Shown here: positions 5,745 through 48,958 of the stretch, piece by piece | How the letters are laid out: each line of letters starts with the position of its first letter | How positions within the stretch are numbered: the first letter of the stretch is position 1 | NCBI GenBank assembly: GCA_032718475.1 | Contig: JAUCBJ010005741.1 | Location: 62,001-126,000, forward strand | From: Nemertoderma westbladi | Lineage: Eukaryota > Animalia > Xenacoelomorpha | Direction of reading: 5' to 3' | Length of the DNA: 64,000 bases | Made by a program: the position numbers and the translations under genes | Notes under the pieces: generated by a model | Database searches by the model: none | What the model was told of the DNA's origin: nothing | Seen by the model: the letters and a program-made list of their open reading frames with translations, nothing else

Positions 5745-6210
5745 GGTAACCTGTGTGCTGACCGCTTCCATGGTAACCTATGTGCTGACCGCTACCATGG
5801 TAACCTGTGTGCTGACCGCTACCACGGTGACCTGTGTGCTGACCGCTACCATGGTAACCTGTGTGCTGACCGTTACCATAGTAACCTGTGTGCGACTGGT
5901 AACCCGTGTGCCGACCGCTACCACGGTAACCTGTGTACCGACCGCTACCACGGTAACCTGTGTGCCGACCCACGGTAACCTGTGTGCCGACCGCAACCAC
6001 GGTAACCTGAGTGCCAACCGCTACCATGATAACCCATGTGCCGACCCAGGGTAACCTGTGTGCCGACTGCTACCACGGTAACCCGTGTGTCGACCGGCGG
6101 TAACCTGTGTGCCAACCGCAACCACGGTAACCCGTGTACCGACCGCTACCACGGTAACCTGTGTGCCGACCCATGGTAACCTGTGTGCCGACCGCTACCA
6201 CGGTAACCTG
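5745..6210. repeat. 27-bp satellite, left part (split by the LTR element)
   Basis: Unit ctgtgtgccgaccgctaccacggtaac and shorter variants. Confidence 0.95.
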
Positions 6211-7351
6211 TGTAAAGGCTTTTGCGTAATTAGCCGGTTATTTTTCCCGTAAAGTACTCTGTAGTTGGTTTACCAGGCATAAAAGGCCGTGTCCTTACTG
6301 TATTGTTGTTTTAGAGGACATAAAAGTAATTTCTTCTGTATGTGTACTTTAGCGGACATAATCCGCAATTTTATGACGCAATAAGCCGGATCCTCTTGAA
6401 ACAGTGTAGATACCATGACGATGGCTAACAGCTGATATTGCCACGTAGAACATCTCTTTGTTCTTTGTTCTCTCTTTGTCCGGTCGACCAATCAGAGCGT
6501 TTTTTGCCTCTGTGTTGGAGATGGTATATAGAAACTAGGGAAGTGAGTCAGTATGTGATTTTTGTCCACAGCCTACAACACCGGCGTGGAACCTCCGTGT
6601 TTCAGTCTTTAGCATCAACATTAGTAGGCTTAATTATAGAACGTATATCCGTTATCTCAGTCACTCATAATTATTCATACCTTAACATTACTGCTTTTGC
6701 TGTCAGTTATTCATTATATTTGTTGATGGAATATTATATTCGGAATACTGATAAACAATCAGACACCCCAATCTTCTTGATATACTAAAGGTTAGATAGA
6801 CCGGATACATATAACGATTGCGACTTACATTAAGTGGTTTGAAGTGAATCTAATGCTATTTTATAGGCCCTACACGTATTGTCTGTTGTTCTCCTTATAT
6901 GTGACTAAAATTAGTGAAGGTCGGCAGATTAGTGTGCAGCATTGTGCAGTATTGTGTATGATTGTGATTGATAACGAAGCATCTCCTAAAGAATGCGCCA
7001 TATACGTGAATCTATAGCCATCCTGTTGTGTCTGGTTTAAGTCATAACTCTGTTTATATATTTAAAGCGCCACGTCCTAAAGGAACTGTTAATATTTCCC
7101 GAAAGTGAATAATATTTGTCAGAGATTATATATACTAAGATCAGTCGAATAATACAGTAGGCCTATCCCGCAATACGATTAGGCTTCCGAATCCAGTCTC
7201 CCGGGTATATCCAGCGGGTGAATGATCGCGCATAGACTGGTTTCGGCTAATGTAGTGTATCAAATATTTGTCGTAGGCTAAAGACTATCTATTATCTAGA
7301 AGACATCCTAATTTGGCAGGTTAAACTGCTAAAGGTCTGAAAGCGCGAACA
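6211..7351 (+). repeat. 5' LTR (1141 bp, TGT...ACA)
   Basis: Matches 23493-24633 apart from about 8 substitutions noticed by eye. Confidence 0.97.
6488..6553 (+). promoter_or_regulatory. Putative LTR core promoter (CCAAT, TATA, Inr)
   Basis: CCAATCAG at 6488, TATATAGAA at 6525 and TCAGT at 6548, in plausible order and spacing. Confidence 0.5.
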
Positions 7352-7366
7352 ATAACGGATATACGT
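7352..7366 (+). other. Primer-binding-site position: non-tRNA, complementary to LTR 6641-6655
   Basis: ATAACGGATATACGT directly abuts the LTR end. Its reverse complement ACGTATATCCGTTAT is at 6641-6655 and 23923-23937. No TGG-starting tRNA PBS is present here. Confidence 0.7.
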
Positions 7367-7694
7367 CTAATTGCAGGGTAGGCAATAAATACAGTTTAAT
7401 ATTGTTCTGGTAAGAACAATAACGGATACTGCTTCTGTATTGCAGTAGGCAATAAAGCTGAAGTACCGGCAACCGGTACCCAGTAGGCCTGACTACCTAA
7501 CCACCCGGACCGGTACCTACAGCAGTACAGGTACAGCAGTATTATTCGATTTTGATAATTATATACCAGTAGGCCTTAATAATTAATCGGGGACTGCAGC
7601 CCTGGTTTTTTATTGAGATTTTACTTATTTCTGTCAGTTTTATTTACTTGTAGGTTAATATTGAGCAGAAGGCGTGTAAGCCTGCTCAGATTGT

Positions 7695-8165
7695 ACAGAT
7701 AATTTGTAGGCTGGACTGTTGTCTGACTGTTGTTAAGTCTGAACGGATTGCAGTGTGTGTAGAGCATCTGTCCGATAAAGTGCTAGTTAGGAACGTAGGG
7801 GCTTCAAGTGCTGTGAGGTAAACCCCCTTTGAAAGAATAAGTCGTACTACTAGGTTAGAACGCATACTAACTAATCATTTCGGAGTCTGCATATACTGTA
7901 GTTTATTTAGGCTTGATAGTAGTCTGCCATCGTTTGGTCTGTACTTTGTTTGTGTAGTCTGTACAGGTAGCGTATAATTCTTATTTAGATAATTCGTAGG
8001 CTGGATAGTTGTCTGGCTGTTGTTAGGTCTGAGGAAATTTCGGTGTGTGTAGAGTGTATGTCCGATAAAGTGCCAGTTGGGAACGTAGTTTGTTTAGGCT
8101 TGATAGTAGTCTGTCAGTATTTGGTCTGGATTTTGTTTGAGTAGTCTGTACACGCGTAGCGTAAT
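7695..8165 (+). repeat. Imperfect direct duplication within the 5' leader of the LTR element
   Basis: 'agataatt.gtaggctgga..gttgtctg.ctgttgtta.gtctga...tccgataaagtgc.agtt.ggaacgtag' at ~7697 and ~7987; 'gtagttt.tttaggcttgatagtagtctg' at ~7898 and ~8085. Confidence 0.75.
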
Positions 8166-8808
8166 ATTTATTATTCAGAGTTTATGCGATTATTCGCAAC
8201 ATTCATTCCCCAAGTTTATTCCTGCAGTAATTGTGCTTGTTATACATACCGTTACAGTTAAACTAACCCCGGTACTACATCAGGGCTGCTCGGCGTAGGT
8301 AAAGACTGGAGATTTTGTGCTTTGGTCACTCCGGCAGATACCATGGTTCTTTTAGCTGTTCAAGTATTTCTAACTACTGATTATTTGTTATATAAGTACT
8401 TGTACCTAATTTAGGGTTTAGTGTACAGTGCTTTCCGAAGGTGATTAGTGTGTAGGCAGTATATTTGTGTTGTAAAGTGGTTAATAGGCACGTTGGTTCT
8501 GGTAGACCGCGGTAATTAACTTCTAGGTAGGAACACTCCGTGATACATAACGTAGTACTTATAGCGATACGGCTATAAGTCGTCAGACGGTGGTATTTTT
8601 CTATCTGGACAACGCAGTATATTTACTACTACTTATTATTTTCAAATACCGTAGTACCCTGTCCGTTGTAATAACCAGATATTCTAACCCTTTGTTAGGC
8701 TGGTTAGTAGACTTCTTGTAAAATTACCCTAAAAATTCGTATTATAAAATTCGTGCTGCCGCGGCAGCAGCAGCGGCAGAGGTAGAAGCGGAAAGAAAGG
8801 CGATAGAA

Positions 8809-11800
8809 GTGGAAAGAAAGGCGTTAGAAGTGGAAAGAAAGGCGGCAGTGGCAGTGGCCGAAGCGGAAAGAAAGGCTGTAGTGGCAGCGGCAGAGGCAGT
8901 GGCAGAAGCAGAACGGAGAGCGGCTGAAGAAACCACCCAATTAGAATTGGAAAACATTCAGGAGAATCAAGACTGCATAAATAAACAGTTAACAGCTAGT
9001 AATATGCAGATGATGAATCGATCTACTCCCAAAAGACAGGGATATACATCATCTGAGGAAGGCGATACCACCGATACTGAAGGCAAAGGAAATAGATCTC
9101 GTCTAAGCAGACGTAGAAGAACATCCCACCGTCAGAAATTGCCTGATTTGCCTCCAGCTGTTAGAAGGCAACTAAATAACACAAACTTAGGTAGTACAGA
9201 ACCCACAGACCAAATAATTAAAATAGAAAGACTCCCTACTATAGTAGATGAGCCTGAAATAATTAGGCCTGTTCCCGAAGCCACCCTTTCGGTGGTAGAG
9301 ACACCTGTACTCCCTGAACCTACCCCTAAATTCCCTCTGCACAGCACTAAGCTACCTGTGCCCAGCAGAACAGCCCATGAGACAATCCATGTTCTGGACT
9401 CCGAGCGAAATATTAATGATTTGTCGCCCGTTGTCCCTCGTCCGCCCGCTACAACGTTGGCGGCTCCCGCTTCGGCGGTCGAGTGGGTGGATGAGAAACG
9501 ACGGGGGATGGATCTCCTGCTCGGGCAGATGCAGGAGACCGTTCAGCAATTCAAGGGCACAGTAAGGGAAAGTAGGTTAGAGTTGCAAGAAGTGCAGCAA
9601 AGAATCGCGTTAGAACGCGATAAATTAGTAAATACACAAAAGGGTATACCACCACCCCCGGTAACAATGTGTCAACCTGTTAGGTCTGAAGTATTTCATG
9701 CGCAAGGTGTGGAGCCTACAAGCATATATACTGCTAGCGAAGTAGAAACTCCTATAGTGAACCCTATTAAGGGTAATTATAGACCTGTTGATAATGATAT
9801 TCCCTATAGACCTGATCATAATCCGAGAAATTTATATACCGATAACTCGATATTAAATAACACGATGGCCCAAGAAAGTTTTATGCGTCAAATGGCTAGA
9901 ACCGAAGCCCGGCAAGCGGTAAAGGTGGGAGAGATAGTCAACTTCAATGGAGATGAGATGAAATGGTTACCTTTTAATGAATATTACAAAGATAACATAC
10001 AGAACTCTGCGCTATCTAATGGAGAGAAACTTAGATTCCTCATCGAGTGCTTGGAACGATCTCCCAAGCTAATGGCGTTAAAGTTTATTGGACATCCAGA
10101 CGGATTAAGACAAGTTTGGGATACACTAAACATCAGGTATGGTAATAGGAATAACATAGCTGGGTATTTGTATGCAAAGTTGGTAGCGCCCCGAAAGTTT
10201 ATTAGCAGCGGGATTATAGAGTTTTCCGATGAGATTCAGGAGATCTGCAGACAATTAGATTGGCTAGGTAAGTCTCATGAGTATCAGAGTGCTATGGTTA
10301 TTAGAGCAGTGGCTTCTACTTTACCGAAGGGTGGAGTAGGTACACGCTGGGACAAGAAAGTGTTATATATGATGGAACAACAACAACGAGACCCTACCAT
10401 GGCTGATCTCATGTCATTCTTGGATGGCGAAGTGAAATTGCAGCTCATAAAGCAGTCCAGAGAGAAGACACCGGAAAACAAGGTAAGTGAGAAACCCGTC
10501 TCTAGGAGAAAGGTAACACCAGTGTGTTATACAGACGATGGCTAAAGCCAGACTTCTCAAGGAGAGGATAGCGGGAAAGACACTGAAAGATCTTATTATG
10601 TCAATAAAACGCCTAAAGACCAGGTAAGTAAATTCAAGTCTCGAACCAATGACAGGAGAGAACAGGTAAGAAAAACTCCTCCTACGTCTCCCAAGAGAAT
10701 TCAGGTGAGAAAGCCCGAAGAAAGAACGAGTGTGCACAATGTTACTCAAAATAAGGTAAGTAACATCAAACCGAAATGTGCGCTATGTGACGGGACCCAC
10801 CGTTTGAATACGTGTGATGAATTCCTGAAGAAATCATTAGCGGAGAGACGGGAAGTCATGTGGGATAAGCGGTTGTGTTATAATTGCCTCAGACAAGGAC
10901 ACCAACGGCGAACCTGTTACTCCGACACAAGGTGTGCAAAGTGCGGTGCGAAACATCATATCTTGTTGCACACTGAATTCGAGCGAAATAGTCCGAGTCA
11001 GGTAAGTGATTCCGAACTACATGTCCAATTCAGTGATGTGAACGACACTGATCAATCTGAGATGGAAGGATTCTATACGGACGAGTTCTCCGACGAAAAC
11101 GAATCCTGTTACATGATAAATACCGCAGTGTATCGAGCACTCACGTATGAAAAAGATACAGACAGCGACCTCACCCTAACTACTTCTGATCGACAACCAT
11201 CTTGGAAAGCACCATCTTCCAATGTAGGAATCCGAGAATTTCCTGTAGTACAGGTAAGGGTTCACGGACCTAAAAGGAGTTATGTAGTGAACGCCCTCCT
11301 TGACTCCGGTAGTACAGGAACATTCATCGACAAAGAACTAGCCGAAGACATTTTTGCTGGACAACCCAAGCTCCGAACTAAGCTAAACATGTCAGGAATT
11401 ATGCAGGTTTGGAAATCTACAGTAATCGCGGATTATTATGTAGGTGCGTTGTCCACCCCCCAGGATGAACTAGGAGAACATAGTATAAGGTCAGTAAAAA
11501 TGGTGGCGATAAAGAACTTCGCTACCACTCAAGTGGAACCTTATAACTGGGATGAGGACGATTTCACCCAGCAGCTGGAAATACCTAGACTCGACACCGA
11601 TTACCCTGGAGTGCAAATACTCATCGGTCAAAACGCGCATGAAGCGCTCGAGACATTGGAGAAACGGCCCGCTCAACCGCAACCACTACAAGCTTATGCG
11701 GGAAGAACTAGAGTGGGTTGGTACTTTACTGGCCCTTCCCGTAGAACTCTCATGGAAAGATTACCGAAAGACCAGGTATGTCAAGTGAGAGAATGGGAAG

Positions 11801-14267
11801 TCGAGAGCAGTGAGTTAGACGATCCAACTGAGGGAACACCATACTCCTCAGATAATGACGATGTCCACCAACTTTTCGATGAGGAGAATGCCATCGATCT
11901 CCTTAAGGAAAACGAGACTTGGCAAAACCAAGTGAATTTATGTCAACTCCTTCTTCCATCAGAGCGAGACGACTATAATGACGAGCTTAATGACGTCATT
12001 GAACGTTATAATGCCAAGACTCGGGACGAACACGCCGTACGATTCTTTACTCAAGAGGCTGTAGAGCCCAATTCCTATGATAAGGCCCTATCGGTAGAGG
12101 AAGAAAGAGCCAAGCAAATCCAAGAGACAACTACACGTTTTCTTAAAGATCAAGGTAGATATGAGATCGGTCTACCTTTCCGAAAGCGAGAACCAAAGTT
12201 CGTAAACAACAGACCCTTGGCGGAGAAAAGAATTGCTCAACTACATCGACGCCTTACGGCAAATTCTTCAGCTAAAGAAATGTATCAAACGCAGTTGAAG
12301 AAGTTTATTAGCAAGGGATATGCGGAGCTAGTACCGGAAGAAACACCTATAACTGAGAGAACGTATTATTTAACTCACCATTACGTTCCCAAACCCGGTA
12401 AACCACATGAGGTACGAGTGGTGTTTGACGGCTCCGCCCTCTATATGGGCCAATCCCTTAATTCTGAATTGCTACCCGGACCCAACTTACTCCAATCATT
12501 GTTGGGAATACTTTTAAGATTAAGACAATATTCCATTGCTTTCGCCTCAGATATAGAAGGCATGTTCTTACAAGTCAAAGCGCTGGATAGGGATCGAGAT
12601 AGCCTACGATTTCTGTGGTGGCCTGAAGGAGACCTCAACCAGAAACCGGTGGAGTACTGGATGACCATCCAAGCTTTTGGGATAATCTCGAGCCCTTCAA
12701 ACGCCTGTTCCGTGGTGCGCACCACTGCGGATGACAACCGAGACGCCTTCTCTAAAGAGGTGATTGACAACATTAAGCGGGATATATACATGGACGACAA
12801 TCTAAAGTCCCTTCCATCAGTCGAAGAAGCCATCGATGTCGCTAAAGGAACGGTAGAGTGCTTAAAAAGAGGTGGATTTCGATTAACTAAATTCACCAGC
12901 AACTCCCGTGAGTTTCTGGAGTCGATCCCGGTAGAAGATCGAGGAGCAAAAGACCTGGATCTAATAAAAGATGATCTCCCAGAAACTAAGACCCTTGGTT
13001 TGAAATGGGACACCGAAAGAGATATCCTGTTTTTCCAACTAAAACAGCGAGATAATCCAGTTCGGACTAAACGGATTTGTTTAAGTATCCTGAGCACTTA
13101 TTTCGATCCATTGGGATTTATTAGCCCAGTTATATTGATTGCTCGGAGTTTAGTACAACAAATGTGGCTTGAAAACCACTCATGGGACGATCCACTTAAG
13201 GGGGAGTTGTTAAAGAAGTGGATGAAATGGGAAGATTCTCTACCAGCCATCGAGAACTTTATAATTTCCCGTTCATATTTTGGTCATGTTCTCCCTACGT
13301 ATTCCTATCAACTCCATGTGTTTGGAGACGCCAGCGATATGGGAATAGGTATAGTAGCCTACCTAAGGGTGGAAACTCCGGACGGAATCAAAGTCGCCTT
13401 GGTTACTTCTAAGGCATTGATAAACAATAAGTTGAAAGTTCCTCGAGCGGAGTTAAAAGCGGCTCTATACGCTACAGCCATCGGCCGGAATGTAACAGAA
13501 CAGATCGACTATCCACTGGAGAAAACTGTCTATTGGACCGACGCTTTACTCGTGTTGGAGTATATAACCAATGAAGTCTGTCAGTTCAGCGTCTTCGTTA
13601 CCAACAGAGTAGCCATTATACTCAGTCGCACAACAATGGATCAATGGAGACATTGCCCCGGAACGATTAATCCAGCAGACATCGCCTCCAGGGGAGCAAC
13701 TCCACAAGAACTGGTAGACACTCCAGACTGGTTAGGTGGACCCGACTTCCTATACAAAGAAGAAGAAGAATGGCCTCCTCATCTTACTACAGCGGAGATT
13801 AGACAGGCCAAGGAAGCGGAGAAAGTCAAACCTAAAACTCGGGCGAGTAAATCGAAGTTATTCAAACCCATGGTAGATCTGTCTGTACTACATATTTCCG
13901 GAGACGACGCTTTGGATCAGAAACCCACAGCCACAAATAAACTTGTTGTGGAAATCCGTGAGAAGGATTGGAAATCTGGAATACCAGACGTCTCGCAAGG
14001 ACTCTCACCTCTTCTGCAGAGAGCGATACATCACTACAGTTCCTGGAATCGGCTCTGTAAGGCCGTTACATATTTAAAGAGATGTTTTCACCATCACTAC
14101 TCCGGGATGAAGGCCAAAGGTGATACCGCTCCAATAACATCAGTGCAGGTCCATGTTATTAAAGATCTTCCCAAATATAAGATATCCGACAGGTTTCTGA
14201 AGGAGAAGATCAGTTATCAGGAACATGACGAAACCAACAAGCAGATGCTGAGACTCCTGCAATGCTA
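8809..14267 (+). pseudogene. BEL/Pao gag-pol, 5' part (Gag, 3 Zn knuckles, aspartic protease, RT, RNase H), with one in-frame TAA at 10543-10545
   Basis: ORFs 8809-10545 and 10705-14295 share a frame and are separated only by that TAA. Motifs: FNGDEMKW/LSNGEKLRFL/LNIRYG (Pao Gag), CALC/CYNC/CAKC knuckles, LLDSGS, RVVFDGS, YMDD, HVFGDAS, YWTD, NPADIASRG. Confidence 0.93.
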
Positions 14268-15799
14268 CCGCATCTTTAAGGCCAGTGTCCTTTAAGATGC
14301 GTCTCAAGAAAGTCATAGGCTGTCCACCATGCTTATTCACTCCATGAGGCTGCCAAAGTACAAGATTATGCACTGGCTGATCCTCACGGCGAAAGCAATG
14401 TCCTGCAAAGCGGAGGCGATTTTGTTCTAGTGTCAAGCTTGGGGGAACCAATGAGACACCTCCAATGTTATATAGTGTCTGGTTGGAGATGTGTGCATTG
14501 TACTTGACACAATGAACCCGGCGTAGCATTCTTGTGAATGTGCCATCCAGAGATTTGGTGTCCTCAGCAGTTAGAGCCCAGCATGGACTCCCGTAGAGGA
14601 GTACTGGAACTACTGCTGCTCTAAATAATCGGACCTTAAGTTTCCGATTAATTCTCGGTGACTTCCAAATCCTGGAAAGCCTATTCAAGGCTGCCCATGC
14701 CTTTCCCTTACGTATTCGAAGGTCCTCACCTGACTTCCGGATCCATGATCCCAGGTAACAGAAGTCGTCCACATGCTCAAGCATACCATCCTTTGAGCTT
14801 ATGCTCATCCGATCAGAGACTTGCTGAGGACTTTCAAAGTTAACTGTCAGAATTTTGGTCTTTCTGGAGTTAATAAAAAGACCAACACTAGAAGCAGCAT
14901 GTTCTAATGAGCTGAGGAGCCGTTGGGCTCCCTCTAATGATTCTGAGAGTACTCCTAAGTCATCAGCAAAGTCTAGATCAGTTAAGTACTTGGCAGGATT
15001 TCCTCGACTTCTGGAGCCAGTAGGTGGAGTTATCATCACCCCATCATCATTATAATGATCTAAGGACATGCGTAGAACATAGTCAACCACAATAATGAAC
15101 AAGAATGGTGCAAGTGTGTCTCCTTGGAGGACGCCCCATAACACTTCAAATGGTTCTGTGTCACCGTCAACAGTAGACACAAATGTTGTCGAACCATCGT
15201 ATACTGATCTGATTGCTGCAATAATTTCATCAGGAATCCCATATAATGAATGTATGCTGAACATACGTGAGCGAGAGACTGAATCAAAGGCCTTGAAGAA
15301 GTCAACAAAGATAACAGCCAGATGCCTGTCTTTCTTTTTTGATAACTCTTCAATTATCCTTCTAAGTGCCAAAATGGGCTCCATGGTCCCACGACCTTTA
15401 CGGAACCCATTCTGATTTCCACGGAGCAGTCTCTCAATGGGATCCCTGATGCGATTTAATAGAATCCTATTGTATAGCTTTGCAGCAATCGAGATCAATG
15501 AGATTCCCCGAAAAGAACCATAGAGTGTTAGGTTGCCCTTCTTGGGAACTGGCACAAACTTATTTGTTTTCATTTCTTGTGGGACTCTTGTTGTTCGGTA
15601 CATGTCTACTATGATGGGATAGATGAGCTTTAAACACTCAGGTATTTTAAAGACCTCAGGGGGAACACCATCTACTCCACTGGCACGATTGGTCTTAATG
15701 CTCTTTGCAGCAGCCTTCACTTCTGCAAAAGAGATATCGCCAATGGGAATATCTGGGAGTACAGACTCAGACACTTTTACTTCTATAAAGTTATGGAAA
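14268..15799 (-). mobile_element. RTE-clade non-LTR retrotransposon fragment (intact RT frame, truncated at both ends) inserted antisense into pol
   Basis: ORF 14140-15855(-) has NQNGFRKGR, FVDFFKAFDSV, GVLQGDTLAPFLF, LDFADD, FCYLGS and RLRFAGHC. It is flanked by a 325-bp duplication of pol (13943-14267 = 15800-16124). Confidence 0.92.
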
Positions 15800-17529
15800 T
15801 TGTTGTGGAAATCCGTGAGAAGGATTGGAAATCTGGAATACCAGACGTCTCGCAAGGACTCTCACCTCTTCTGCAGAGAGCGATACATCACTACAGTTCC
15901 TGGAATCGGCTCTGTAAGGCCGTTACATATTTAAAGAGATGTTTTCACCATCACTACTCCGGGATGAAGGCCAAAGGTGATACCGCTCCAATAACATCAG
16001 TGCAGGTCCATGTTATTAAAGATCTTCCCAAATATAAGATATCCGACAGGTTTCTGAAGGAGAAGATCAGTTATCAGGAACATGACGAAACCAACAAGCA
16101 GATGCTGAGACTCCTGCAATGCTATGAGGATTCCGATAAGTATTTCCTGTTGTTGAGAAATCCACAGATGCGCTTAAGGGATCGTTTCTCTAGCACAATG
16201 ATAGATGGGTTAATACGTGTTGGAGGAAGATTAACGAATGCTCCATTATCCTTTGACACTAAGTTCCCCATACTCATTAGAAATCTTGAAATACAAGTCA
16301 AGATGATTGTAGATGTTCACAGCAAACTTTATCATGCTGGTAGAGAACGAGTTCTTAGCGAAATTCGAACTCGCTATTATTTTTATAAACCCCGTAGAGC
16401 TCTGAACCAAGTTCTTAGGAACTGCATACCCTGTAGGAAAGCATTCAGTAGGCCTTTAACACAGCGAGAGGCAGAATTACCTAGGGAACGAATAAGCTTC
16501 TATGAACCACCCTTTACTAATACCGGTGTAGATTTATTTGGCCCTATTGAAGTATATCGTGCTAGGACTATAGTCAAGAGATGGTGTGTAATCTTTGTTT
16601 GTATGACTTGTAGAGCTATCCATCTCGATATGGTGAACGATTTATCTACCAACAGCTTTCTATTAAGCTTACGACGACAGATCGCTCGCTTTGGCACTAG
16701 TAACACGATGAGATCTGATAAGGGAACAAACTTCATTGGTGCCAACAATGAAATCAAAGCTTACGTCAAAGATTGGAACCAAAGACAGGTGGACGATCAG
16801 CTACGAGTAACAGCGTCTAGCTGGACCTTCAACGCCGCCGACGCCCCTTGGTGGGGATGAAGTTGGGAGAGATTAATAAGAAGTGTGAAGACCGCATTTC
16901 ACTTTATAGTGCCTTGCCGCGCGTATCTCACCGACGAACTTTTGCGGACGTTAATGGAGGAAATCGCCGCCTATCTCAACGAGAGACCGCTTATGCCAGT
17001 CTCATCGAGTCCCGATTCCCTGGAAGCGCTAACACCCGCGCATTTCCTACTGAAGAAACCTGTAGCCATGCTCCCACAATCGGAAATCACAGACGGAGAC
17101 GAATACTGCCGGCAAACTTGGCAACTCATGCAGTTGTTATCCCGTCGTTTCGCTGACCATTTCGAAAAACATTATCTGCCCACGCTACAACTTCGAACTA
17201 AGTGGTTTGCGCAGCAAGAAAACGTCAGCGCTGGAGACATGGTTCTTATTGTGGATGTAGATCTTCCACGTAAGCGGTGGCAGACAGGTCGTATCATCGA
17301 GACTCACATCTCGGATGACGGTTTGGTGCGATCGGTAGAACTCGTCGTCATGCGACGTAACTTCAAGAAACCGGGAATTGTCTTCGAGACGCAGCAGCTC
17401 AATCGCCCAGTTGGTTGCTTATGTTTACTGGAAAGAGACAGAGAACTCTCCGGAAACTATGGGAGGCAAGATACTCTTCCCACGACCACCTCCCTAATCC
17501 AACAAACATCTAGGGACTCCCCAACTTAA
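15800..17529 (+). pseudogene. BEL/Pao pol, 3' part (integrase and C-terminal domain), with an in-frame TGA at 16858-16860
   Basis: RVGGRL, H..H..CIPC zinc-binding region, GVDLFGP, SDKGTNF, APWWG*SWERLIRSVK (expected GG), LTPAHFL, and a RTKW...GDMVLI...W.TGRI...DGLVR tail. All in the same frame as upstream pol. Confidence 0.92.
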
Positions 17530-18077
17530 CAATGGCTGGAGTGGGTGTATGACTATATTTGTATTTGTTTTATTCTTTTATATTTATGTATATATTATTA
17601 TGTAATTTTATTATAATCGTTTTCTTTAATTTTACTTAGTAGAATGTTATTTTAGCGATTATTTAGTAGATTAGTGCAATATGTATTCGCGTTTATTACT
17701 TAATTACTTATATATTATATATTTAGTGCGACGGCGAGAAATAATTCTTTTTCTCTTTCCTTACTGTCCGTATTACATTACAAATACGTAACTACAGTAA
17801 GATGAAATATCCGTACTTATTAAAGTACAATAAAGCCACTACTATATTCAAGTATTATTGGTAGGCAGAGTATTAGGAATGCAAAGTTCAGATCCTCGTG
17901 TCTCGGCTAAACCAAGCTCTGGGTAGACCTTGGAAACGACTTGCCTCTTCACACTGACATTGCTTCGTGCGATATTGCTCTCATACCGTATATTAAATAA
18001 TACATATAGTAGCGTGATGTCCCTTTAACAGTAGCGTATAACGCAAAATAAATCTGTTAAACCCTTTGACCATCTGC

Positions 18078-18378
18078 AATTCTAGTCGATTAAGATATCG
18101 TGGCACCCACCGATATACTTGAAAGACAAAATTCTAGAATCAGTGGTTAACGTCCCCAGACAAGTTCTGGAATAAACTGGTGCCCATCCTAAATATTAAT
18201 TATTAATATTTACAAAATCTGTCAAATATCAGATCCTTTAAAATTCTAGTCGATTAAGATATCGTAGCACTTACCGATACTCTTAAAAGGACAAAATTCC
18301 TAGAATCAAGGATCCCAGTCCCCAGACACGTTCTGGAATAAAATTGTGTCTATTTTAATATTAAATAATAAAATTTAC
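18078..18378 (+). repeat. Two diverged copies (164-bp spacing) of a hairpin-forming unit in the pol-ORF2 spacer
   Basis: aattctagtcgattaagatatcgt.gcac..accgata..ctt.aa.gacaaaatt.ctagaatca...ccaga.a.gttctggaataaa at 18078 and 18242. Confidence 0.85.
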
Positions 18379-19120
18379 GGGAATAAATTTAAATTCATAT
18401 ATTTCAATGAATTTAATAAATTGTCATTTTATACAATTTATAACATTCCCAAAATTCCATTAATTAATAGATCATGGGAGCGGAGATTCACTCTATTAAG
18501 TGTATTTGTGTGCGAGAATCTCCAATATAGTCAATAGCCGATAAAATTTATAAAATCATATATAGAGAGGATATTGACAATTAAAGAATTACTATTAAAT
18601 AGCATCCCAGATCTGTATGCATGAGAATTACCCTAATTCTACCGCTAGCTTTCCATAATGTCACCATGGCAACAACCACGCTAGAATTAGAAGTGAGTTA
18701 AAGAACAATAGAAGGCTTGCCCCATTGAATAGCATAGGGAATAAATAGCGCACTGCTAGTATCCAAGGATACATAATAAATACAGTGACATTCTGGAAGG
18801 TACTGACTAACGGACAAATGGCCCGAATGTGTGCGGTTTATGGCAGTTGTGTTGAATTTGTGCGTTTGTAGGTGAATGTTACTACTAAGGTGTGTTTACA
18901 GTAGCGAGTCGCAATTGTGAAAGTAGCCCTAACTCTCCAGAAAGAACCTGTAGTACATCTAAGCCTTTGGGACGGACAGTGGAGTGACTTGTGCCGGTTA
19001 TTGTTGTCGTTGTGTAGCTACATCGTTGGCGAAAGCACAGCGACGACGGTACATCGGCGCTGAGGATCTTACACTGTCCGGGGGCAAAAGAGGGGTAGGC
19101 AGCGACGCCCGCTAGCCTAA

Positions 19121-19128
19121 TATATAAA
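19121..19128 (+). promoter_or_regulatory. TATA-like box upstream of ORF2 (possible internal promoter)
   Basis: TATATAAA 40 bp before the ATG at 19161, preceded by a GC-richer stretch (~18960-19115). Confidence 0.3.
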
Positions 19129-19160
19129 CTCATTATAATATTGATAAACTCATAGCAGAT

Positions 19161-22100
19161 ATGACTGAGTTGATAGAAGATGATCTCGGTATTAGGGAGC
19201 GATATACTCTACCTTTACAAGCGTTTGTCGATAGCTTGATACGCGGCGACGCTGATCCAACTACTACGGAGGATGATGGTCGTTATATCGAACCGCCAAT
19301 GTCCCAGGAGCAACTTACGCGTGAATTGGATTATAGAAAGTTCACCGCTCGCTATACGCATCGTAATGGTACGTATATGGACTTCTTAACTACTGGCCAT
19401 CCTATCGATTTACACGATACGGACGATGTAGACACCGAAAGGGAAATGGTTTTATTTAGATATCATACCCAGCGGAGTCGGAACGACAAACCGAGAATAG
19501 AACACGAGAACTCTATTCGAAACAAACTCGAAAGGGAAGACGTTGAAGAGCCGGATAAACGCAGCGACTTCAACGATTATCTGGAATTCCTGAGAGAGAC
19601 ATATCTCAATATTGCCAGTCAACAAAATCTCGAAACTCGATATCCCCAAGGTATACATCATGATCCTATGATAGAACTCAAACGACTCTATTTCACTATG
19701 ATGTATCTTACCGCCGATCGACCGCTACCTGTCGTCCCAGATAGCTTCGAACAGATGGAGGAATATTGTAAAACTGGAGAACAATCACCCGCGTTTCCCC
19801 TGCAGGACGTGCGTCTGTGGTATTACTGCGACGAATGCCCTAGACCCAATCAGCAAACGGAAAGACATAAACATCCGCAGAGACATTGCGCTAAACACAG
19901 TTTTACCCGATATACTTATGGGAGTTTCGAGCGAAACCTGTTCGACGTATCCCCCTCGAACGGCTCGACTCAAACGATCCTTGAACAAACCAATGATCAG
20001 AGTTCCGGAATACTCGGTCAGACCTCCTCATTCCTCAGTTAGACCTCAGACTCTTGATCCTAATAGTATCACGGATCCTCCCGAACTGTACTCACTGTTC
20101 AAAGATCTAGTGTTACCCGAACAGTTGATCGGTGGCACCCCGGTGGTAGGCTCACTAGATATTCGCCAACCCTACCTAGCTGGATTGGGACGCGGTCATC
20201 TAATATCGCCGTTTAACCCATACAACCGTCGCGGCTTCACCTCGATCCAACCCGTTACGGAAGTCGAAGAGAGCGTCATACGAAACGCGCTAGACGCTAT
20301 TCGGCAGAAAATCGGAAAGGGAACTTACGATTGTTTGGAGAAACGTAAATTACAACAACAAGTCCAAGCGGTGAAGGAATTAGCTTTACCCAGTTCGATA
20401 GAGAAACACAAAATCTCGAGGAGGACATCGAACGTGGACGAACCTACTCTTTACAAGAGTTCCTAGATGAGCGTCTACAACAACAAGCGGAGGAAAATCA
20501 GCTCGAGGAGAGACATATAGAACTGGATGAGAGAGAAGAAGCAGCTTTAGCTCAACCCGAAGCTCAAATCCTTATGACGGATCTCTACTCTAAAACCATC
20601 CTTCATCCCTCGATGGTTCCCCATTTCGGAGACAAACTCTTTGCGACGGCACAACCACAACCGGTTGATATCAACCTAAGATCTCGAGATCTTATCGCTG
20701 ACGCTCCCATGTTACAGCGTCCTCCCATCGAAGCCGCTCGTGTCGAGGGTATACTCGTTGAACCTCCGGACAATAGAGCGGATCTTGTCCGTCGCATGGT
20801 ACACGATGTTAACATATGCGCTAGACCTTTACCGGACTCGTTTTATGGGATCAAAGATCACCCTTATTACGTTAACCTAACACAATATTACATGGTAAAA
20901 CCGGAAGATCCTACACATAGTCTGAGGTTTTTGCCACTCATAAATCCTCTCGATCTTGTCGAACTCGAACAACTGCATAAACATCTGGATCAGTTAGTTA
21001 AAGTAAACTCATTTCGAAAACCATATAATGTTTCCAGAATAGAGAAAGAAACAATACCTCCGTATAATCTTGATGGATTCATCAAAACTCGTTTAGTACA
21101 CTGGAATCTTGACGTGTTATTCGAGGAGGAAAGAATACAACGATATGGAGATGTGGAAACATATACCACACAATATTTAAAGTATAGAGACCTACCTAAT
21201 GCTAGCGAATGAGCTACCTTGTGGCATCCTGTGGGAATGACTCTCGAAAACGCCACTAAAGAGTGGAATGAGACTCTTAACGTTATCGAGATGTATGGAG
21301 TTGTCACCTACGACAACGAAGGTAGCGTTCCGGTTGGAGAACTGGGAACTACGCGGATGATACACATACGAGGACTCGCTGGTTCTACCCACGTATTTAC
21401 TCGAGCGTGTTCCGATGTGATTGATTATTCTTTTGAAACTCTTACTGAGACCCAAAAGAAACTCCGACATGGACAATTCGAACTCGCGCAGCGTTATGTC
21501 ACCGACACCGAGCGCAAACCGGCCATGGGTATCGATGGATCGATGTTACCCCAACCCGTGCTCGAGATGTTGTTTAACGAAAGAATCCTTAAAATCGGCT
21601 CGGCTGTTTATGGAGATCTACAAAACGACTTTCGGAATATGGAAAACATTCCATACCCTTTCGTTGATACTCAGCTGATTGCTCCCTGGGCAGAAGGCCG
21701 AGGTTTCTTCCGCACTATGTATGCCAATACACCCAGCGGCATTACTAAAGTACAACGAACCTCCATTGGACATCTTGCCTTTCAAGAATACGGATGGAAT
21801 TTCAAGGTTGGAAATCCTATAAATTACCAACAAGTATATGGAGATCATTATTCTCGTTTATACTTTGATGGACCATTGACCGCACCTGGCGCCGTGTATA
21901 GCTTTATGAGTGTTCCACTTCGTCCCTCCTTAGCTATATACACGATATTTGAAAACGCAGCACTTGCCGGTTGGCTAGCCGATGTGTGCAGTCGTACCAT
22001 ACGCGCGCATCCATTAATACTTGGAACCAAACTCGCCAAGTTAGATGAACACAATAAATTCATCCGCTTCGAATGTTTCAGGCGCTTTCTGACTCCGTTC

Positions 22101-23414
22101 CGTAACGTTGATAGTCAGTTCAAGGACCGCGCTCTGACCAAACTCAGCCTAAGAGACTCAGCTGCGGAGAAGCTAAACAGCGCGGGATTTGCTCTCTTTC
22201 AGGACGTTTGTATACAGAACTTACATTCATCTGTTATACAAAGACCCCGAATACCCACAGGTTATTCTGTCGTGGAAGTTCAGACAGTGGGTCCGCTTGC
22301 GGAGACAGCCGCACCTACCTCAGCTATGCAATTGGAAGACGAACCAATATGCTTAGAATCTGAAGCGATCCAGCCTACAGCGCCCCGGAGCAGCGATAAC
22401 GACTACGTCTTAGAGTGGTATCAAGGTCCACAATGTCTCACCGCACACGATTATCGACACGCTAACTATGTTTCTCGAAAACGTTGTCGATTATGCGCAT
22501 CAAGAGACCATTTCACCCCTATGGACTCAGACGTACCCTGCTCCTATTTCCACGAACAACCGATGATGGAGATATATTGTGCGTATTGCAGACTTAATAA
22601 CTCTCATATTTTTGCAGTCTGCCCCCAATTTATGACTCAATGCCACCACTGTCAACTTAAAGGACATGCCAGTTATAATTGCCCCTTTAATCGCGATTTA
22701 GAGAGCGTAGATGAGATGATTACCCTGCGCTACATCCGAGCTTGGGAAGCGAACGCGGATTTACATTGTGAGTCCCGCCATCGCTACTACCCTGGACGCT
22801 CTTACGAGGGAGTTTACGCGTTTCATCCTTATTTATTCGCGTCTGTGGAACAAAAAACACGCACACCGAGTTACGAACTAATGAAGCGTGTTGGTGAGTG
22901 TATTTCCACCAAATTTGTTCGAAAATACCTTAGGAACGTCAATCCTAACGATATTACTTCATACCATTTGATCAATTACATCTGTCAAGACCCTGAGTAT
23001 GGCGATTTATTTATCAACTCGTACCCTGAGTTACAGGAAGTATCTCGACGGCCCTATGAATATCGAGCCCGAGAACGCGAGCTGGAAAGAACCATTAAAC
23101 CAAGGAAGTTTCTCACCACTCACGGTCCGCCTACCGCTGTTGTCCAGACGACCCGTCAAGGACCCATAGGAGCTGCTGTCCTAAGACGCGCCCTAAAGGC
23201 CGTTAGACCTCGCTCCACTGAAGTTGATATCGATCAACCAGGTACCTCAACCGGCGGATACACCGATCGTAATTCTACACCTTCTGATGCAATTGTATTG
23301 CACCCTTCACCCAGGAGTTACAGCCCTCCTAGTAAAGTGGCTCGCCCCAAAGAGAAAAGGACTCTTGCTAGCCTCAAAAAACTGCGTAAACGCCGTCCGC
23401 GTAAGAAAGACTAA
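19161..23414 (+). pseudogene. Accessory ORF2 of the LTR element: putative DEDDy 3'-5' exonuclease + CCHC zinc-knuckle protein (~1400 aa reconstructed)
   Basis: ORFs starting at 19161, 20574 and 21219 share one frame, bridged by 19918-20466 (frameshifts at ~19900-20040 and ~20388) and one TGA at 21210. Exo motifs: VVTYDNEG, LPQPVLEMLFNERILKIGSAVYGD, FVDTQ, SIGHLA, PLRPSLAIYTIFE. Knuckles: CRLC..H..C, CAYC..H..C, CHHCQLKGHASYNC. Confidence 0.75.
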
Positions 23415-23483
23415 CTGTTTAGAGTATTTTTATATTTTAGAAACTGTGATTTGTTATATTTTATAGACTAAAATCCCATTTTC

Positions 23484-23492
23484 TGGGAGCGG
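23484..23492 (+). other. Polypurine-tract-like plus-strand primer site
   Basis: tGGGAGCGG lies immediately before the TGT of the 3' LTR. Confidence 0.55.
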
Positions 23493-24633
23493 TGTAAAGG
23501 CTTTTGCGTAATTAGCCGGTTATTTTTCCCGTAAAGTACTCTGTAGTGGGTTTACCAGGCATAAAAGGCCGTGTCCTTACTGTATTGTTGTTTTAGAGGA
23601 CATAAAAGTAATTTCTTCTGTATGTGTACTTTAGCGGACATAATCCGCAATTTTATGACGCAATAAGCCGGATCCTCTGGAAACAGTGTAGATACCATGA
23701 CGACGGCTAACAGCTGATATTGCCACGTAGAACATCTCTTTGTTCTTTGTTCTCTCTTTGTCCGGTCGACCAATCAGAGCGTTTTTTGCCTCTGTGTTGG
23801 AGATGGTATATAGAAACTAGGGAAGTGAGTCAGTATGTGATTTTTGTCCACAGCCTACAACACCGGCGTGGAACCTCCGTGTTTCAGTCTTTAGCATCAA
23901 CATTAGTAGGCTTAATTATAGAACGTATATCCGTTATCTCAGTCACTCATAATTATTCATACCTTAACATTACTGCTTTTGCTGTCAGTTATTCATTATA
24001 TTTGTTGATGGAATATTATATTCGGAATACTGATAAACAATCAGACACCCCAATCTTCTTGATATACTAAAGGTTAGAGAGACCGGATACATATAACGAT
24101 TGCGACTTACATTAAGTGGTTTGAAGTGAATCTAATGCTATTTTATAGGCCCTACACATATTGTCTGTTGTTCTCCTTATATGTGACTAAAATTAGTGAA
24201 GGTCGGCAGATTAGTGTGCAGCATTGTGCAGTATTGTGTATGATTGTCATTGATAACGAAGCATCTCCTAAAGAATGCGCCATATACGTGAATCTATAGC
24301 CATCCCGTTGTGTCTGGTTTAAGTCATAACTCTGTTTATATATTTAAAGCGCCACGTCCTAAAGGAACTGTTAATATTTCCCGAAAGTGAATAATATTTG
24401 TCAGAGATTATATATACTAAGATCAGTCGAATAATACAGTAGGCCTATCCCGCAATACGATTAGGCTTCCGAATCCAGTCTCCCGGGTATATCCAGCGGG
24501 TGAATGATCGCGCATAGACTGGTTTCGGCTAATGTAGTGTATCAAATATTTGTCGTAGGCTAAAGACTATCTATTATCTAGAAGACATCCTAATTGGGCA
24601 GGTTAAACTGCTAAAGGTCTGAAAGCGCGAACA
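23493..24633 (+). repeat. 3' LTR (1141 bp)
   Basis: Direct repeat of 6211-7351, followed by the TSD ACCTG. Confidence 0.97.
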
Positions 24634-27600
24634 ACCTGTGTGCCGACCGCAACCACGATAACATGTGTGCGGACCGCTAGCTAAAATGGTATCCCGTGTG
24701 CCCAATGCTACTATGGTAACCCGTGTGCCCAATGCTACTACGGTAACCCGTGTGCCGACTGGTACCACGGTTACCTATGTGCCAACCGCTACCATGGTAA
24801 CCTATGTGCCGACTGCTACTGTGTGCCGACCGTTACCATGGTAACCTGTGTGCCAACCGCTAGTGTGTGCTGACTGCTACCACGGTAACCTATGTGCCGA
24901 CTGCTACTGTGTGCCGACGGCTATTAGGGTAACCTGTGTGCCGACCGCTACCATGGTAACTCGTGTGTCGACCGGCGGTAACCTGTGTGCCAACCGTTAC
25001 CACGGTGACCTGTGTGCCGAACGCTACCACAGTAACCTGTGTGCCGACCGCTACCATGATAACCCATGTGCCGACCCAGGGTAACCCATGTGCCGACTGC
25101 TACCACAGTAACCTATGTGCTGACCGCTACTGATGCCAACCGCTACCACGGTAACCTGTGTGCCGACCGCTACCACAGGAACCTATGTGTTGACTGCTAC
25201 TGTGTGCCGACCCCTACCACAGTAACTCGTGTGCCGACCCACCACGGTAACCTGTGTGCCGACCATAGTACCCTGTGTGCCGACCGCTACCATGATAACC
25301 CATGTGCCGACCCACGGTAACCTGTGTGCCGACTGCTACCACAGTAACCTATGTGTCGACCGCTACTGTGTGTCGACTGCTACCACAGTAACTCGTGTGC
25401 CGATCAACCATGGTAACCTGTGTGCCGACCATGGTACCCTGTGTGCCGACCGCTACCACGGCAACCTGTGTGCTGACTGCTACCACGGTAACCCATGTGC
25501 CAACCCACGGTAACCCATGTGCTGACCCACGGTAACCTGTGTGCCGACCGCTACTGATGCCAACCGCTACCATATGGTAACTCGTGTACCGACCGACGGT
25601 AACCTGTGTGCCGACTGCTACTGTGTGCTGACTGCTACCACGGTAACCTATGTGCCGACTGCTACTTTGTGCCGACTGCTACCATGGTAAACTGTGTGCC
25701 AACCGCTAGTGTGTGCCGACTGCTACCACGGTAACCTATGTGCCGACTGCTACTGTGTGCCGACCGTTACCAGGGTAACCTGTGTGCCGACCGCTACCAC
25801 GGTAACCCGTGTGTCGACTGGCGGTAACCTGTGTGCCAACCGCTACCACGGTAAACTGTGTGCCTACCACTACCACGGTAACCCGTGTGCCGACCGCTAC
25901 CACGGTAACCTATGTGCCGACCGCTACCACGGTAACCTGTGTGCCAACCGCAACCAAGGTAACATGTGTGCGGACCGCTACCACGGTAACCTGTGTGCCG
26001 ACCCACGGTAACCTGTGTGCCGACCGCAACCACGGTAAACTGTGTGCCTACCACTACCACGGTAACCCGTGTGCCGACCGCTACCATGGTAACCTATGTG
26101 CCGACCGCTACCACGGTAACCTGTGTGTACCGCAACCACAGTAACATGTGTGCGGACCGCTAGCTACAATGGTAACCCGTGTGCCGACCACCACGGTAAC
26201 CCGTGTGCCGAATGCTACCACGGTAACCCGTGTGCCGACTGGTACCACGGTTACCTATGTGCCAACCGCTACCATGGTAACCTGCGTTCCGACCGCTACT
26301 GTGTGCTGACTGCTACCACGGTAACCTATGTACTGACTGCTACTGTGTGCCGCTCGCTACCATGGTAACCTGTGTGCCAACCGCTAGTGTGTGCCGACTG
26401 CTACCACGGTAACCTATGTGCCGACTGCTACTGTGTGCCGACCGCTACCAGGGTAACCTGTGTGCCGACCGCTACCATTGTAACTCGTGTGTCGACCGGC
26501 GGTAACCTGTGTGCCAACCGCTACCACGGTAACCTCTGTGCCGAACGCTACCACAGTAACCTGTGTGCCGACCGCTACCATGATAACCCATGTGCCGACC
26601 CAGGGTAACCCATGTACGACCCACGGTAACCTGTGTGCCGACTGCTACCACAGTATCCTATGTGCTGACCGCTACTGATGCCAACCGCTACCACAGTAAC
26701 CTGTGTGCCGACTGCTACCACAGTAACCTATGTGTCGACTGCTACTGTGTGCCGACCGCTACCACAGTAACTCGTGTGCCGACCCACCACGGTAACCTGT
26801 GTGCCGACCATGGTACCCTGTGAGCAGACCCCTACCATGATACCCCATGTGCCGACCCTGGGTAACCCATGTGCCGACCCACGGTAACCTGTGTGCCGAC
26901 TGCTACCACAGTAACCTATGTGTCGACCGCTACTGTGTGTCGACTGCTACCACAGTAACTCGTGTGCCGACCCTGGGTAACCCTTGAGCCGACCACTGTA
27001 ACCTGTGTGCCGACCGCTACCACGGTAACCTGTGTGCCGACCGCAACCATGGTAACCTGTGTGCCAACCGCTAGTGCGTGCCGACTGCTACCACGGTAAC
27101 CTATATGCCGACTGCTACTGTGTGCCGACCGCTACCAGGGTAACCTGTGTGCCGACCGCTACCACGGTAACCCGTGTGTCGACCGGCGGTAACCTGTGTG
27201 CCAACCGCTACCACGGTAACCCGTGTACCGACCGCTACCACGGTAACCTGTGTGCCGACAAAAGGTAACCTGTGTGCCGACCGCTACCACGGTAACCTGT
27301 GTGCCGACCCACGGTAACCTGTGTGCCGACCGCAACCACGGTAAACTGTGTGCCTACCACTACCACGGTAACCCGTGTGCCGACCGCTACCACGGTAACC
27401 TATGTGCCGACCGCTACGACGGTAACCTGTGTGCGGACCGCTAGCTAAAATGGTATCCCGTGTGCCGACCGCTACGACGGTAACCTGTGTGCCAACCGCA
27501 ACGACGGTAACATGTGTGCGGACCGCTAGCTACATTGGTAACCCATGTGCCGACCACCACGGTAACCCGTGTGCCGAATGCTACCACGGTAACCCGTGTG

Positions 27601-43652: not shown

Positions 43653-43889
43653 CTGTGGCGTGGGGATAGTATAAACGAGATATAGAAATACAGACCTAAA
43701 ATTGTATATAATTGAATAAAGAATTAATTATATTTATATTTTTGCTATATTATATCTTACTGTATGTACGTGATACCGGATCTCGGTGTAATAAAATTAA
43801 TATATATTATATAATAATAAATTAATATAACTGATGAGATTAAAAATAATGTAAATAAGAATGATTTGTTTTCGAAACTAAGTTAAGAC

Positions 43890-45470: not shown

Positions 45471-45582
45471 AGACTTTAACTCTTTACTTATCTTTGAAAG
45501 ACATACTTTAGAGTACATGCCACCAAATATTTATCTCTAAGTTAACAGAAACAAAAGGTCAGAAAGTCTTCTGGAGTGTTAA

Positions 45583-48500: not shown

Positions 48501-48958
48501 GGTAGTGGCTACCTCATCCCCCTTCCGGACTGTTACGGTAGTGGGTACCTCATCCCCCTTCCGGACTGTTACGGTAGTGGCTACCTCATCCCCCTTCCGG
48601 ACTGTTACCGTGGTAGTGGCTACCTCACTCCCCTTCAGGACTGTTACGGTAGTGGGTACCTCATCCCCCTTCCGGACTGTTACGGTAGTGGCTACCTCAT
48701 CCCCCTTCCGGACTGTTACGGTAGTGGCTACCTCATCACCCTTCCGGACTGTTACGGTAGTGGCTACCTCACTCCCCTTCAGGACTGTTACGGTAGTGGC
48801 TACCTCATCCCCCTTCCGGACTGTTACGGTAGTGGCTACCTCATCCCCCTTCCGGACTGTTACGGTAGTGGCTACCTCATCCCCCTTCCGGATTGTTACG
48901 GTAGTGGCTACCTCATCCCCCTTCCGGACTGTTACGGTAGTGGCTACCTCACTCCCCT
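45583..48958. repeat. 36-bp minisatellite, ~94 copies, intronic
   Basis: Unit ggtagtggctacctcatcccccttccggactgttac. Confidence 0.97.

Follow-up and report, generated by a model that had tools for sequence, protein, structure and literature searches.

A young but broken BEL/Pao LTR retrotransposon occupies positions 6211-24633 of the window (the whole 64,000-nt stretch of Nemertoderma westbladi DNA analyzed here), and it probably starts reverse transcription in the manner of Tf1, from its own RNA, with an accessory exonuclease-like ORF (ORF2) acting independently of priming. The reference description of BEL/Pao elements has them primed by host tRNA; this element and 18 distant families show a self-priming signature instead, so that a third LTR superfamily is likely to include elements that prime without a tRNA. 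In the mechanism that we favor, transcription would start at or shortly before 6641 and the 5′ end of the transcript would fold onto the primer-binding site (PBS); the element's RNase H would likely cut the RNA after 6655, and the freed RNA end would prime minus-strand DNA synthesis, as in Tf1, whose primer is described as the RNA's first 11 bases, cut by RNase H (PMC7175516).

The element is 18.4 kb long, or ~16.6 kb without an inserted LINE piece. The limits proposed from the sequence alone were correct: they coincide with a pair of LTRs that begin with TG, end with CA, differ at 8 positions over 1141 nt, and are flanked by a target site duplication, ACCTG. Its class follows from these features together with Pao-type Gag and Pol domains in the order PR-RT-RH-IN: Peptidase_A17 matches with an E-value of 3e-36, DUF1759, H2C2 and DUF5641 are also matched, and PF05380 is present in all 120 RT-RH matches listed. 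Pol is of the BEL/Pao type rather than the Ty3/gypsy chromovirus type, which places the element outside the Tf1/sushi clade. The parts of the element are:

6206-6210, + strand: 5′ copy of the target site duplication (ACCTG, 5 nt), within a 27-nt tandem array split by the insertion
6211-7351, + strand: 5′ LTR, 1141 nt, TG..CA
8722-10545, + strand: N-terminal part of gag (DUF1759), terminated by an in-frame stop
10546-14295, + strand: gag knuckles, protease, RT (YMDD at 12787) and the Pao RNase H region (Peptidase_A17)
14268-15796, − strand: inserted LINE-type RT fragment
15797-17529, + strand: integrase (H2C2 finger, core, DUF5641), interrupted by an in-frame stop at 16858
19128-21212, + strand: upstream accessory coding region, disrupted by frame changes and stops
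23485-23492, + strand: short purine-rich tract preceding the 3′ LTR, a candidate PPT
23493-24633, + strand: 3′ LTR, 1141 nt, with the second primer copy at 23923-23937
24634-24638, + strand: 3′ copy of the target site duplication

The LINE-type fragment is flanked by a 328-nt direct duplication (13940-14267 and 15797-16124), and profile searches gave no significant family match for the coding region at 19128-21212. Contigs of one sequencing run aligned to the element as 189 and 46 pieces of mixed identity in two alignments, which shows that diverged copies exist; these contigs revealed neither end of the transcript and no splice site, and none of the differences listed falls within the primer or PBS, where coverage is thin. 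A joint at 6641-6984 was rejected as an intron: unknown letters lie between its sides, and GT..AG ends are absent.

The region that would set the start of reverse transcription contains the following features:

6641-6655, + strand: predicted self-primer, exact PBS complement, at what comparison with relatives suggests is the U3/R border
6971-7017, + strand: stretch within the LTR, a rival partner of the primer in predicted folds
7347-7456, + strand: short unit, present twice, comprising the end of the LTR, the start of the PBS and AATAAA
7352-7366, + strand: PBS, ATAACGGATATACGT, starting at the first base after the 5′ LTR, with no TGG

The PBS had been called self-complementary, and it is: read as the reverse complement, all 15 nt match 6641-6655 and 23923-23937 exactly, forming a duplex of -20.1 kcal/mol, and a match of 15 nt at offsets 0-5 did not arise in any of 3000 dinucleotide-shuffled versions of the LTR (the best was 14, once). 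By the measure used for Tf1-type sites, at least 10 nt complementary to the LTR starting 0-5 nt past its end, as given in PMC6317226, the element has 15 nt at offset 0. The 18-nt PBS expected of BEL/Pao elements, one complementary to the tRNA-Arg or tRNA-Gly 3′ end, is absent, as no TGG follows the LTR; because BEL/Pao membership rests on Pol, this absence marks the element as a variant. A splice-built alternative for the element's own primer was rejected: it matches over 14 nt, shorter than the contiguous 15, and uses a non-canonical donor. Also as the sequence-only reading had it, the LTR contains neither AATAAA nor ATTAAA, and AATAAA lies at 7384 and 7451; since both end copies of one duplicated unit (7347-7389 and 7414-7456, 84% alike), they are one motif seen twice. 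The second unit also yields a 10-nt partial PBS at 7419-7428.

Pairing of this kind was also found in relatives: in 22 of 78 distant BEL/Pao loci scanned, the PBS is complementary to an exon-exon (GT..AG) junction inside the LTR, as compared with 17 of 780 in the null, and the match reaches at least 11 nt in 21 of these 22 loci, as compared with 3 of the 17 (counts that retain one doubtful junction match, that of L073). The 22 loci form 18 families from marine metagenome contigs, in which the letters differ from family to family and the pairing is kept. They are spread across the RT tree, which is a quick search that leaves out L056 for short cover and holds no references for named clades such as Suzu, Sinbad and Sailor. 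They count as distant because the element's RT sits on a long branch (1.78) and is at most 45% identical to theirs. Primer matches in relatives are mostly 11-12 nt, like the 11-base primer of Tf1, and primers end in AC or AT in 17/18 families; the element's ends in AT. Contiguous 10-11-nt complements in relatives were, as a class, not above null; a 33-nt contiguous match in L068 was set aside because it resembles a contig-end fold-back, and a 15-nt contiguous row is probably a palindrome of L041. A priming system is likely shared across the group; most relatives assemble the primer at a splice junction, and the contiguous primer of the element is likely the version without an intron. Pairing that depends on removal of an LTR intron would make the onset of reverse transcription depend on splicing by the host, and the element offers a natural intron-less comparison to these splice-built primers.

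The relatives also bear on where transcription starts. Their pairing reaches no more than 4-9 nt into the upstream exon, consistent with a transcript start at the primer, and a poly(A) hexamer lies within 100 nt downstream of the primer in 10/18 families (upstream in 1/18), which would place the primer at the start of R, the geometry of the 5′ primer of Tf1. Other observations count against this reading. The element has no TATA box ~30 nt before 6641, only TATA-like words at 6525 and 6634; in relatives, the rise in A/T at -35 to -29 is slight (0.68 vs 0.44-0.65) and loose TATA-like words at -31 to -34 occur in just 7/22 loci. Other starts would be possible at the TCAGT words at 6548, 6602 and 6657, the last of which lies downstream of the primer. 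At equilibrium, predicted folds preferably pair the primer with the internal LTR site, and the probability of primer:PBS pairing is at most 0.01; forcing this pairing is predicted to cost 3-4 kcal/mol if the RNA starts at 6636-6641 and ends no later than 7480, and 19 kcal/mol in the one fold lengthened to 7700.

If the element can supply its own primer, what does its exonuclease-like ORF do? The ORF is stop-free over 21213-23414 and was annotated as follows:

21237-23414, + strand: accessory ORF, 725 aa from the first ATG (21237), with an RNase D/WRN-like 3′-5′ exonuclease domain, three zinc knuckles and a basic tail
21312 and 21318, + strand: ExoI D and E
21615, + strand: ExoII D
21939 and 21951, + strand: likely ExoIII Y and E
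22485, 22578 and 22641, + strand: three Cys/His zinc knuckles, C-terminal to the exonuclease domain

The three knuckles are present, and several weak tests concur in giving the domain moderate support as RNase D/WRN-like: the best NCBIfam matches are RNase D (E 0.0034 and 0.021); hhalign gives 76%, E 2e-5, over 48 columns; our own HMM gives ORF2 7.6 bits, as compared with a best of 1.6 among 300 shuffles, and its relative P0121 22.1 bits; and Atlas scores are 0.89 for ORF2 and 0.94 for P0121. The ExoI D-x-E and ExoII D align with RNase D columns D28/E30 and D85. Pfam has no exonuclease match for ORF2 itself, PHROGs gives a single weak exonuclease row (E 0.35), and PDB sequence searches returned no exonuclease, only nucleocapsid knuckles, for P0121. 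Both AlphaFold predictions were unusable (pLDDT 34 and 33), so the proposed fold rests on sequence. A full HMMER search of 1.84 billion proteins found two relatives, P0121 and P0122, both nameless singletons; word-index searches with ORF2 found nothing, no relative emerged when viral contigs were scanned with ORF2 and Pol or prokaryote genomes with ORF2, and the P0121 domain gave nothing useful against plasmids. ExoIII, the third catalytic motif, is ambiguous, reading Y-x3-E when ORF2 is aligned pairwise with P0121 and Y-x3-S in MAFFT. The MAFFT placement (Y 229/S 233 in frame numbering, where a serine replaces the aspartate) would suit a catalytically dead RNA-binding derivative, as would P0122, which retains only the first acidic residue of ExoI, and the existence of dead DEDD derivatives such as Maelstrom and EXD1. 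We regard loss of activity as a serious possibility, albeit not the favored one: the pairwise alignment shifts ExoIII one repeat later, to Y 243/E 247, which matches Y..EN of P0121 and is spaced from the PL motif just as in RNase D, and the ExoI D/E and ExoII D align. An active accessory protein would most likely bind RNA and trim RNA 3′ ends in some other step; as a first guess, its targets might be host small RNAs or the element's own RNA.

That other step is likely not the making of the primer. The sequence-only reading had joined the two features into an exonuclease-matured self-primer: the 15-mer in the 3′ LTR, or else a short RNA from the LTR, would anneal to the PBS, and the encoded exonuclease would trim the overhang to a 3′-OH. 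Self-priming in place of a tRNA finds support in sequence comparisons; maturation by the exonuclease from either of these RNAs does not, and we consider it highly improbable. A variant in which the element's own RNA is cut in the 700-nt loop (or a 3′ LTR copy is used) and then trimmed to the duplex by the knuckle-bearing exonuclease would be the first retroelement-encoded primer-maturation enzyme, atop group-wide BEL/Pao self-priming; it, too, is very unlikely. Maturation of this kind draws on the presence of the PBS complement and the exonuclease-like ORF in one element, on four acidic residues, D, E, D and E in one possible alignment, common to ORF2 and P0121, on the TCAGT at 6657, which permits a start just past the primer, on the lack of a canonical poly(A) signal in the LTR, and on 3′-end processing of element RNA having been raised as a possibility for rotifer ORF3 (PMC5408684). 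Yet ORF2 pieces, P0121 and P0122 matched none of 79 loci in tblastn, and 18 of the 22 self-complementary loci (14 families) have no room for ORF2 because only 121-535 nt, with stop-free frames of at most 72 aa, separate integrase from LTR; across 36/36 measurable loci, the distance from integrase to the 3′ repeat is at most 1652 nt, as compared with 5964 nt in the element. Self-complementary relatives lacking ORF2 were among the observations named in advance as refuting the linked system, and dependence of the self-complementary PBS on ORF2 falls in these distant relatives. They could borrow an exonuclease in trans, a possibility that we counted against our preferred explanation. Besides, relatives have the primer upstream of the poly(A) signal, and the post-PBS AATAAA is duplicated and not conserved (AATAAA/ATTAAA follows the PBS in only 1/18 families); trimming to 23937 would destroy the R on which the first strand transfer depends, and an RNA ending at 7384 or 7451 would contain the PBS, so that its 3′ end would be trimmed only as far as the PBS strand and not to 6655. 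What would have been the greatest surprise, a coupling of the exonuclease ORF to the self-complementary PBS, is not supported.

We also weighed two other readings of the primer. The RNA may start well upstream, at ~6550 or 6604, leaving a 50-105-nt fragment, possibly spliced shorter, as the primer; the TATA-like word at 6525, the TCAGT words at 6548 and 6602, two donor-like words (6543 and 6551) and the AG at 6638-6639 would all serve such a start, which nonetheless seems unlikely: primer-PBS pairing breaks off abruptly at 15 nt, relatives pair with so little of the upstream exon, and forced pairing is costlier, at 7-9 kcal/mol. Alternatively, the complement may not be a working primer at all, with a cut tRNA or other host RNA priming instead, or with the pairing serving to fold or dimerize the RNA. 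Copia lineages with half-tRNA primers are known, the predicted folds disfavor the primer:PBS duplex, and ICTV gives the family as tRNA-primed (PMC8742986). We give this reading very little weight: there is no TGG, the complement is flush with the LTR end, 18 families keep the pairing with differing letters, and a TGG-type site is found in only 1 of the 14 loci with a paired LTR end, being absent from the other 13. Tf1-like self-priming by a broken BEL/Pao element that also carries an independent exonuclease gene remains the explanation that we prefer.

How does such an element compare with known systems? Like members of the Belpaoviridae (PMC8742986), it has the gag-PR-RT-RH-IN order, DUF1759, Peptidase_A17 and DUF5641, an animal host, and an LTR length within 0.2-1.2 kb. 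Unlike the family profile, which specifies an 18-nt PBS for tRNA-Arg or tRNA-Gly, a genome of 4.2-10 kb and an optional env, it lacks a tRNA-type PBS, spans 18.4 kb and carries an exonuclease-knuckle ORF in the place of env. In the kind and position of this ORF, it resembles the DEDDy ORF3s of the bdelloid rotifer elements Juno, Vesta and Athena/Terminon, RNase D-like ORFs after pol in which one acidic motif residue is changed to Glu, as may also be the case in ORF2; these are described as family-specific, late-acquired accessories of rotifer LTR elements, and the paper that describes them makes no mention of PBS or tRNA (PMC5408684). Exonuclease accessory ORFs, in the literature that we found described for rotifer elements, would extend to an unusually large BEL/Pao element, a different retrotransposon lineage, which adds three knuckles and a further upstream coding region. 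In priming, the closest parallels are Tf1/Tf2/Tj1 and the Tf1/sushi group of Ty3/gypsy, plant Tcn1, and TAR/Houba, for which PMC7175516, PMC4600332 and PMC6317226 describe a PBS directly after the LTR that complements a short LTR stretch of 11-15 nt, with no tRNA site. The element differs from the Tf1 group in being BEL/Pao, in its 15-nt match, in the ~700 nt between primer and PBS, and in a start and RNase H cut that are predicted; and, unlike the Tf1 group, most of its BEL/Pao relatives assemble the primer across an intron.

The first 15 bases past the 5' LTR (the primer-binding site, PBS, 7352-7366) are the exact reverse complement of LTR positions 6641-6655, the predicted self-primer, and no TGG is present at this PBS. 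None of 3000 dinucleotide-shuffled LTRs reached a 15-nt complement at offsets 0-5, and the primer:PBS duplex comes to -20.1 kcal/mol. The sequence-only reading, which had reported a self-complementary PBS and AATAAA at about 7384 and 7451, is confirmed on these points, and the exact 15-nt complement, in place of a TGG, supports self-priming at the level of sequence. The two hexamers occupy an identical position within two copies of one duplicated unit; 7414-7456 is a partial second copy of the LTR end and PBS, with a 10-nt complement, 67 nt past the first. Predicted folds of the whole region weigh against self-priming: the primer favors an internal LTR site near 6971-7017 over the PBS, with which it pairs at a probability of 0.01 or less and at a cost of 3-4 kcal/mol (RNA starts 6636-6641). 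Long-range equilibrium RNA folds are unreliable. The internal stretch (6971-7017) that pairs with the primer region in these folds could hide the primer copy in the 3' LTR or act as a switch.

The element (6211-24633) is flanked by the target duplication ACCTG and sits in a 27-nt tandem array; its LTRs (1141 nt each, ends TG..CA) differ from each other at eight positions. Pfam assigns the coding region to BEL/Pao (DUF1759, Peptidase_A17, H2C2 finger, DUF5641), with a weak match to an aspartyl protease. Among the matches listed, relatives of its RT-RH are 36-44% identical, carry PF05380 in 120 of 120 cases, and have as named hosts cnidarians, molluscs, echinoderms, a hemichordate, a barnacle and fish. 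This copy is broken, and other features lie within it and beyond:

10543, 16858, 21210: in-frame stops in the element
13940-16124: direct 328-nt duplication, 99.7% identical, around a LINE fragment; much longer than a usual target duplication, and either templated repair or an assembly artefact
14268-15796: LINE-type RT fragment inside that duplication
17530-19127: long A/T-rich spacer separating integrase from the accessory region, with a 164-nt tandem duplication at 18078-18378
19128-21212: broken coding sequence of ~690 codons ahead of the exonuclease ORF; Pfam, PHROGs and NCBIfam give it no significant family
19702-20466: frame changes in the element
39903-43727, 60296-61720, 62937-63998 (minus strand): long ankyrin-repeat open frames, one of them also bearing a KH domain in an ANKHD1/Mask-like layout; no relation to the element
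44249-44762, 58314-58513: further related LINE pieces
45568-48957, 52206-54153: large tandem arrays (36-nt units, 94 copies; 33/72/144-nt units) with long open frames on both strands
54269-54808: fibrinogen-domain frame after the arrays

Relatives of the element were sought by scanning metagenome contigs against a Pol alignment, and the best 79 of at least 547 confirmed BEL/Pao relatives were retained. Among the 78 with enough upstream sequence for a junction search, 22 have a 10-15-nt stretch, 0-3 nt past a CA, complementary to a GT..AG intron junction, so that their PBS finds its complement only where two exons of the LTR are joined; the null gave 17/780 (for complements of at least 11 nt, 21/78 observed vs 3/780). 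The 22 loci form 18 families with differing letters, scattered over the RT-RH tree, and their LTR introns span 72-488 nt, mostly with GTAAGT donors:

L001, L010, L017, L023, L029, L031, L032, L040, L044, L065, L066 and others: LTR regions of junction type

The other 56 loci, many of them contigs with little LTR sequence, yielded no junction-type complement. Fourteen loci have a paired LTR end, three of which may not be true LTR ends: nine are junction-type in the main scan, one (L013) in the first search, and one is TGG-type. Contiguous complements as a class show no excess over the null in relatives; in one clade, three loci (L049, L063, L078) show contiguous 10-11-nt complements beside sisters of junction type, a pattern consistent with intron-less forms such as the window's element.

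Which RNA end, then, would supply the primer? In 10/18 families an AATAAA/ATTAAA follows the primer within 100 nt, in 1/18 one lies upstream of it, and in 1/18 one occurs within 110 nt past the PBS; the upstream exon contributes only 4-9 nt of the pairing, which begins at A in 12/18 families; loose TATA-like words occur at -31 to -34 from the primer in 7/22 loci, where the average A/T rise is slight. Taken together, hexamer positions, short upstream-exon pairing, A start and TATA-like words would place the primer of the relatives at the start of R. We infer the same for the window element, in which the poly(A)-like word nearest to the primer is GATAAA at 6750; a TATA 30 nt before 6641 is absent, and other RNA starts are possible. 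The sequence-only reading had instead proposed that the encoded exonuclease trims the 3' LTR copy, or a short LTR RNA, to make the primer. This route is not supported, and it would face two further difficulties: were the genomic RNA trimmed back at its 3' terminus to 23937, R sequence used in strand transfer would be lost, and an RNA whose end lies past the PBS would fold on itself, so that trimming would stop on the PBS strand.

The accessory frame itself (21213-23414, ATG at 21237, 725 aa) is open and gives only a weak knuckle in Pfam. Among 1.84 billion representatives it has two relatives, P0121 (E 3e-7) and P0122 (E 3e-4), and all three share a layout of N-terminal domain and knuckles; in P0122 the exonuclease-like N-terminus is degenerate and the triple-knuckle module occurs in two tandem copies. 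The domain has two NCBIfam hits, each to RNase D (E 0.0034, 0.021); hhalign of the ORF-P0121 pair with E. coli RNase D gives 76% in the ExoII region; with an HMM built on 14 bacterial 3'-5' exonuclease domains, the ORF reaches 7.6 and P0121 22.1 bits (maximum of 300 shuffles, 1.6); and Atlas comparison with PF01612 clusters gives 0.89 for the ORF (rank 5, a lead only) and 0.94 for the P0121 domain. From these matches, and from the aligned ExoI D/E and ExoII D, an RNase D/WRN-like domain is likely. ExoIII reads Y-x3-E in the pairwise alignment with P0121 or Y-x3-S in the multiple alignment; the former is favored because Y..EN is common to both proteins.

Exonuclease maturation also finds no support in co-occurrence: distant BEL/Pao relatives have the PBS pairing without the ORF. 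Four pieces of the ORF region, P0121 and P0122 have no match among the best 79 of at least 547 relatives. The gap from integrase to terminal repeat is at most 1652 nt in the 36 loci having both ends, vs 5964 nt in the window. In 18 of the 22 junction-type loci (14 families; the other four are cut by contig ends) integrase lies 121-535 nt from the LTR or primer, with no stop-free frame above 72 aa between them. With the element's RT on a long branch of the RT-RH tree and the relatives compared being distant, the exonuclease might have a role peculiar to this lineage; relatives might also receive exonuclease help in trans.

BEL/Pao elements are described as 4.2-10 kb long with a PBS for tRNA-Arg/Gly (PMC8742986). 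By title and start of abstract, outside subscription journals and Repbase notes, no report of self-priming or of an exonuclease ORF in BEL/Pao was found; the passages covered of PMC3118150, whose element set could bear on the question, mention neither primer, PBS nor exonuclease. The rotifer elements Juno and Vesta carry a DEDDy ORF3, its function given as unknown in their description (PMC5408684). The start-of-R position suggested for the relatives would be like that of Tf1 and Tf2, whose primer lies at the start of R (PMC7175516, PMC5341516).
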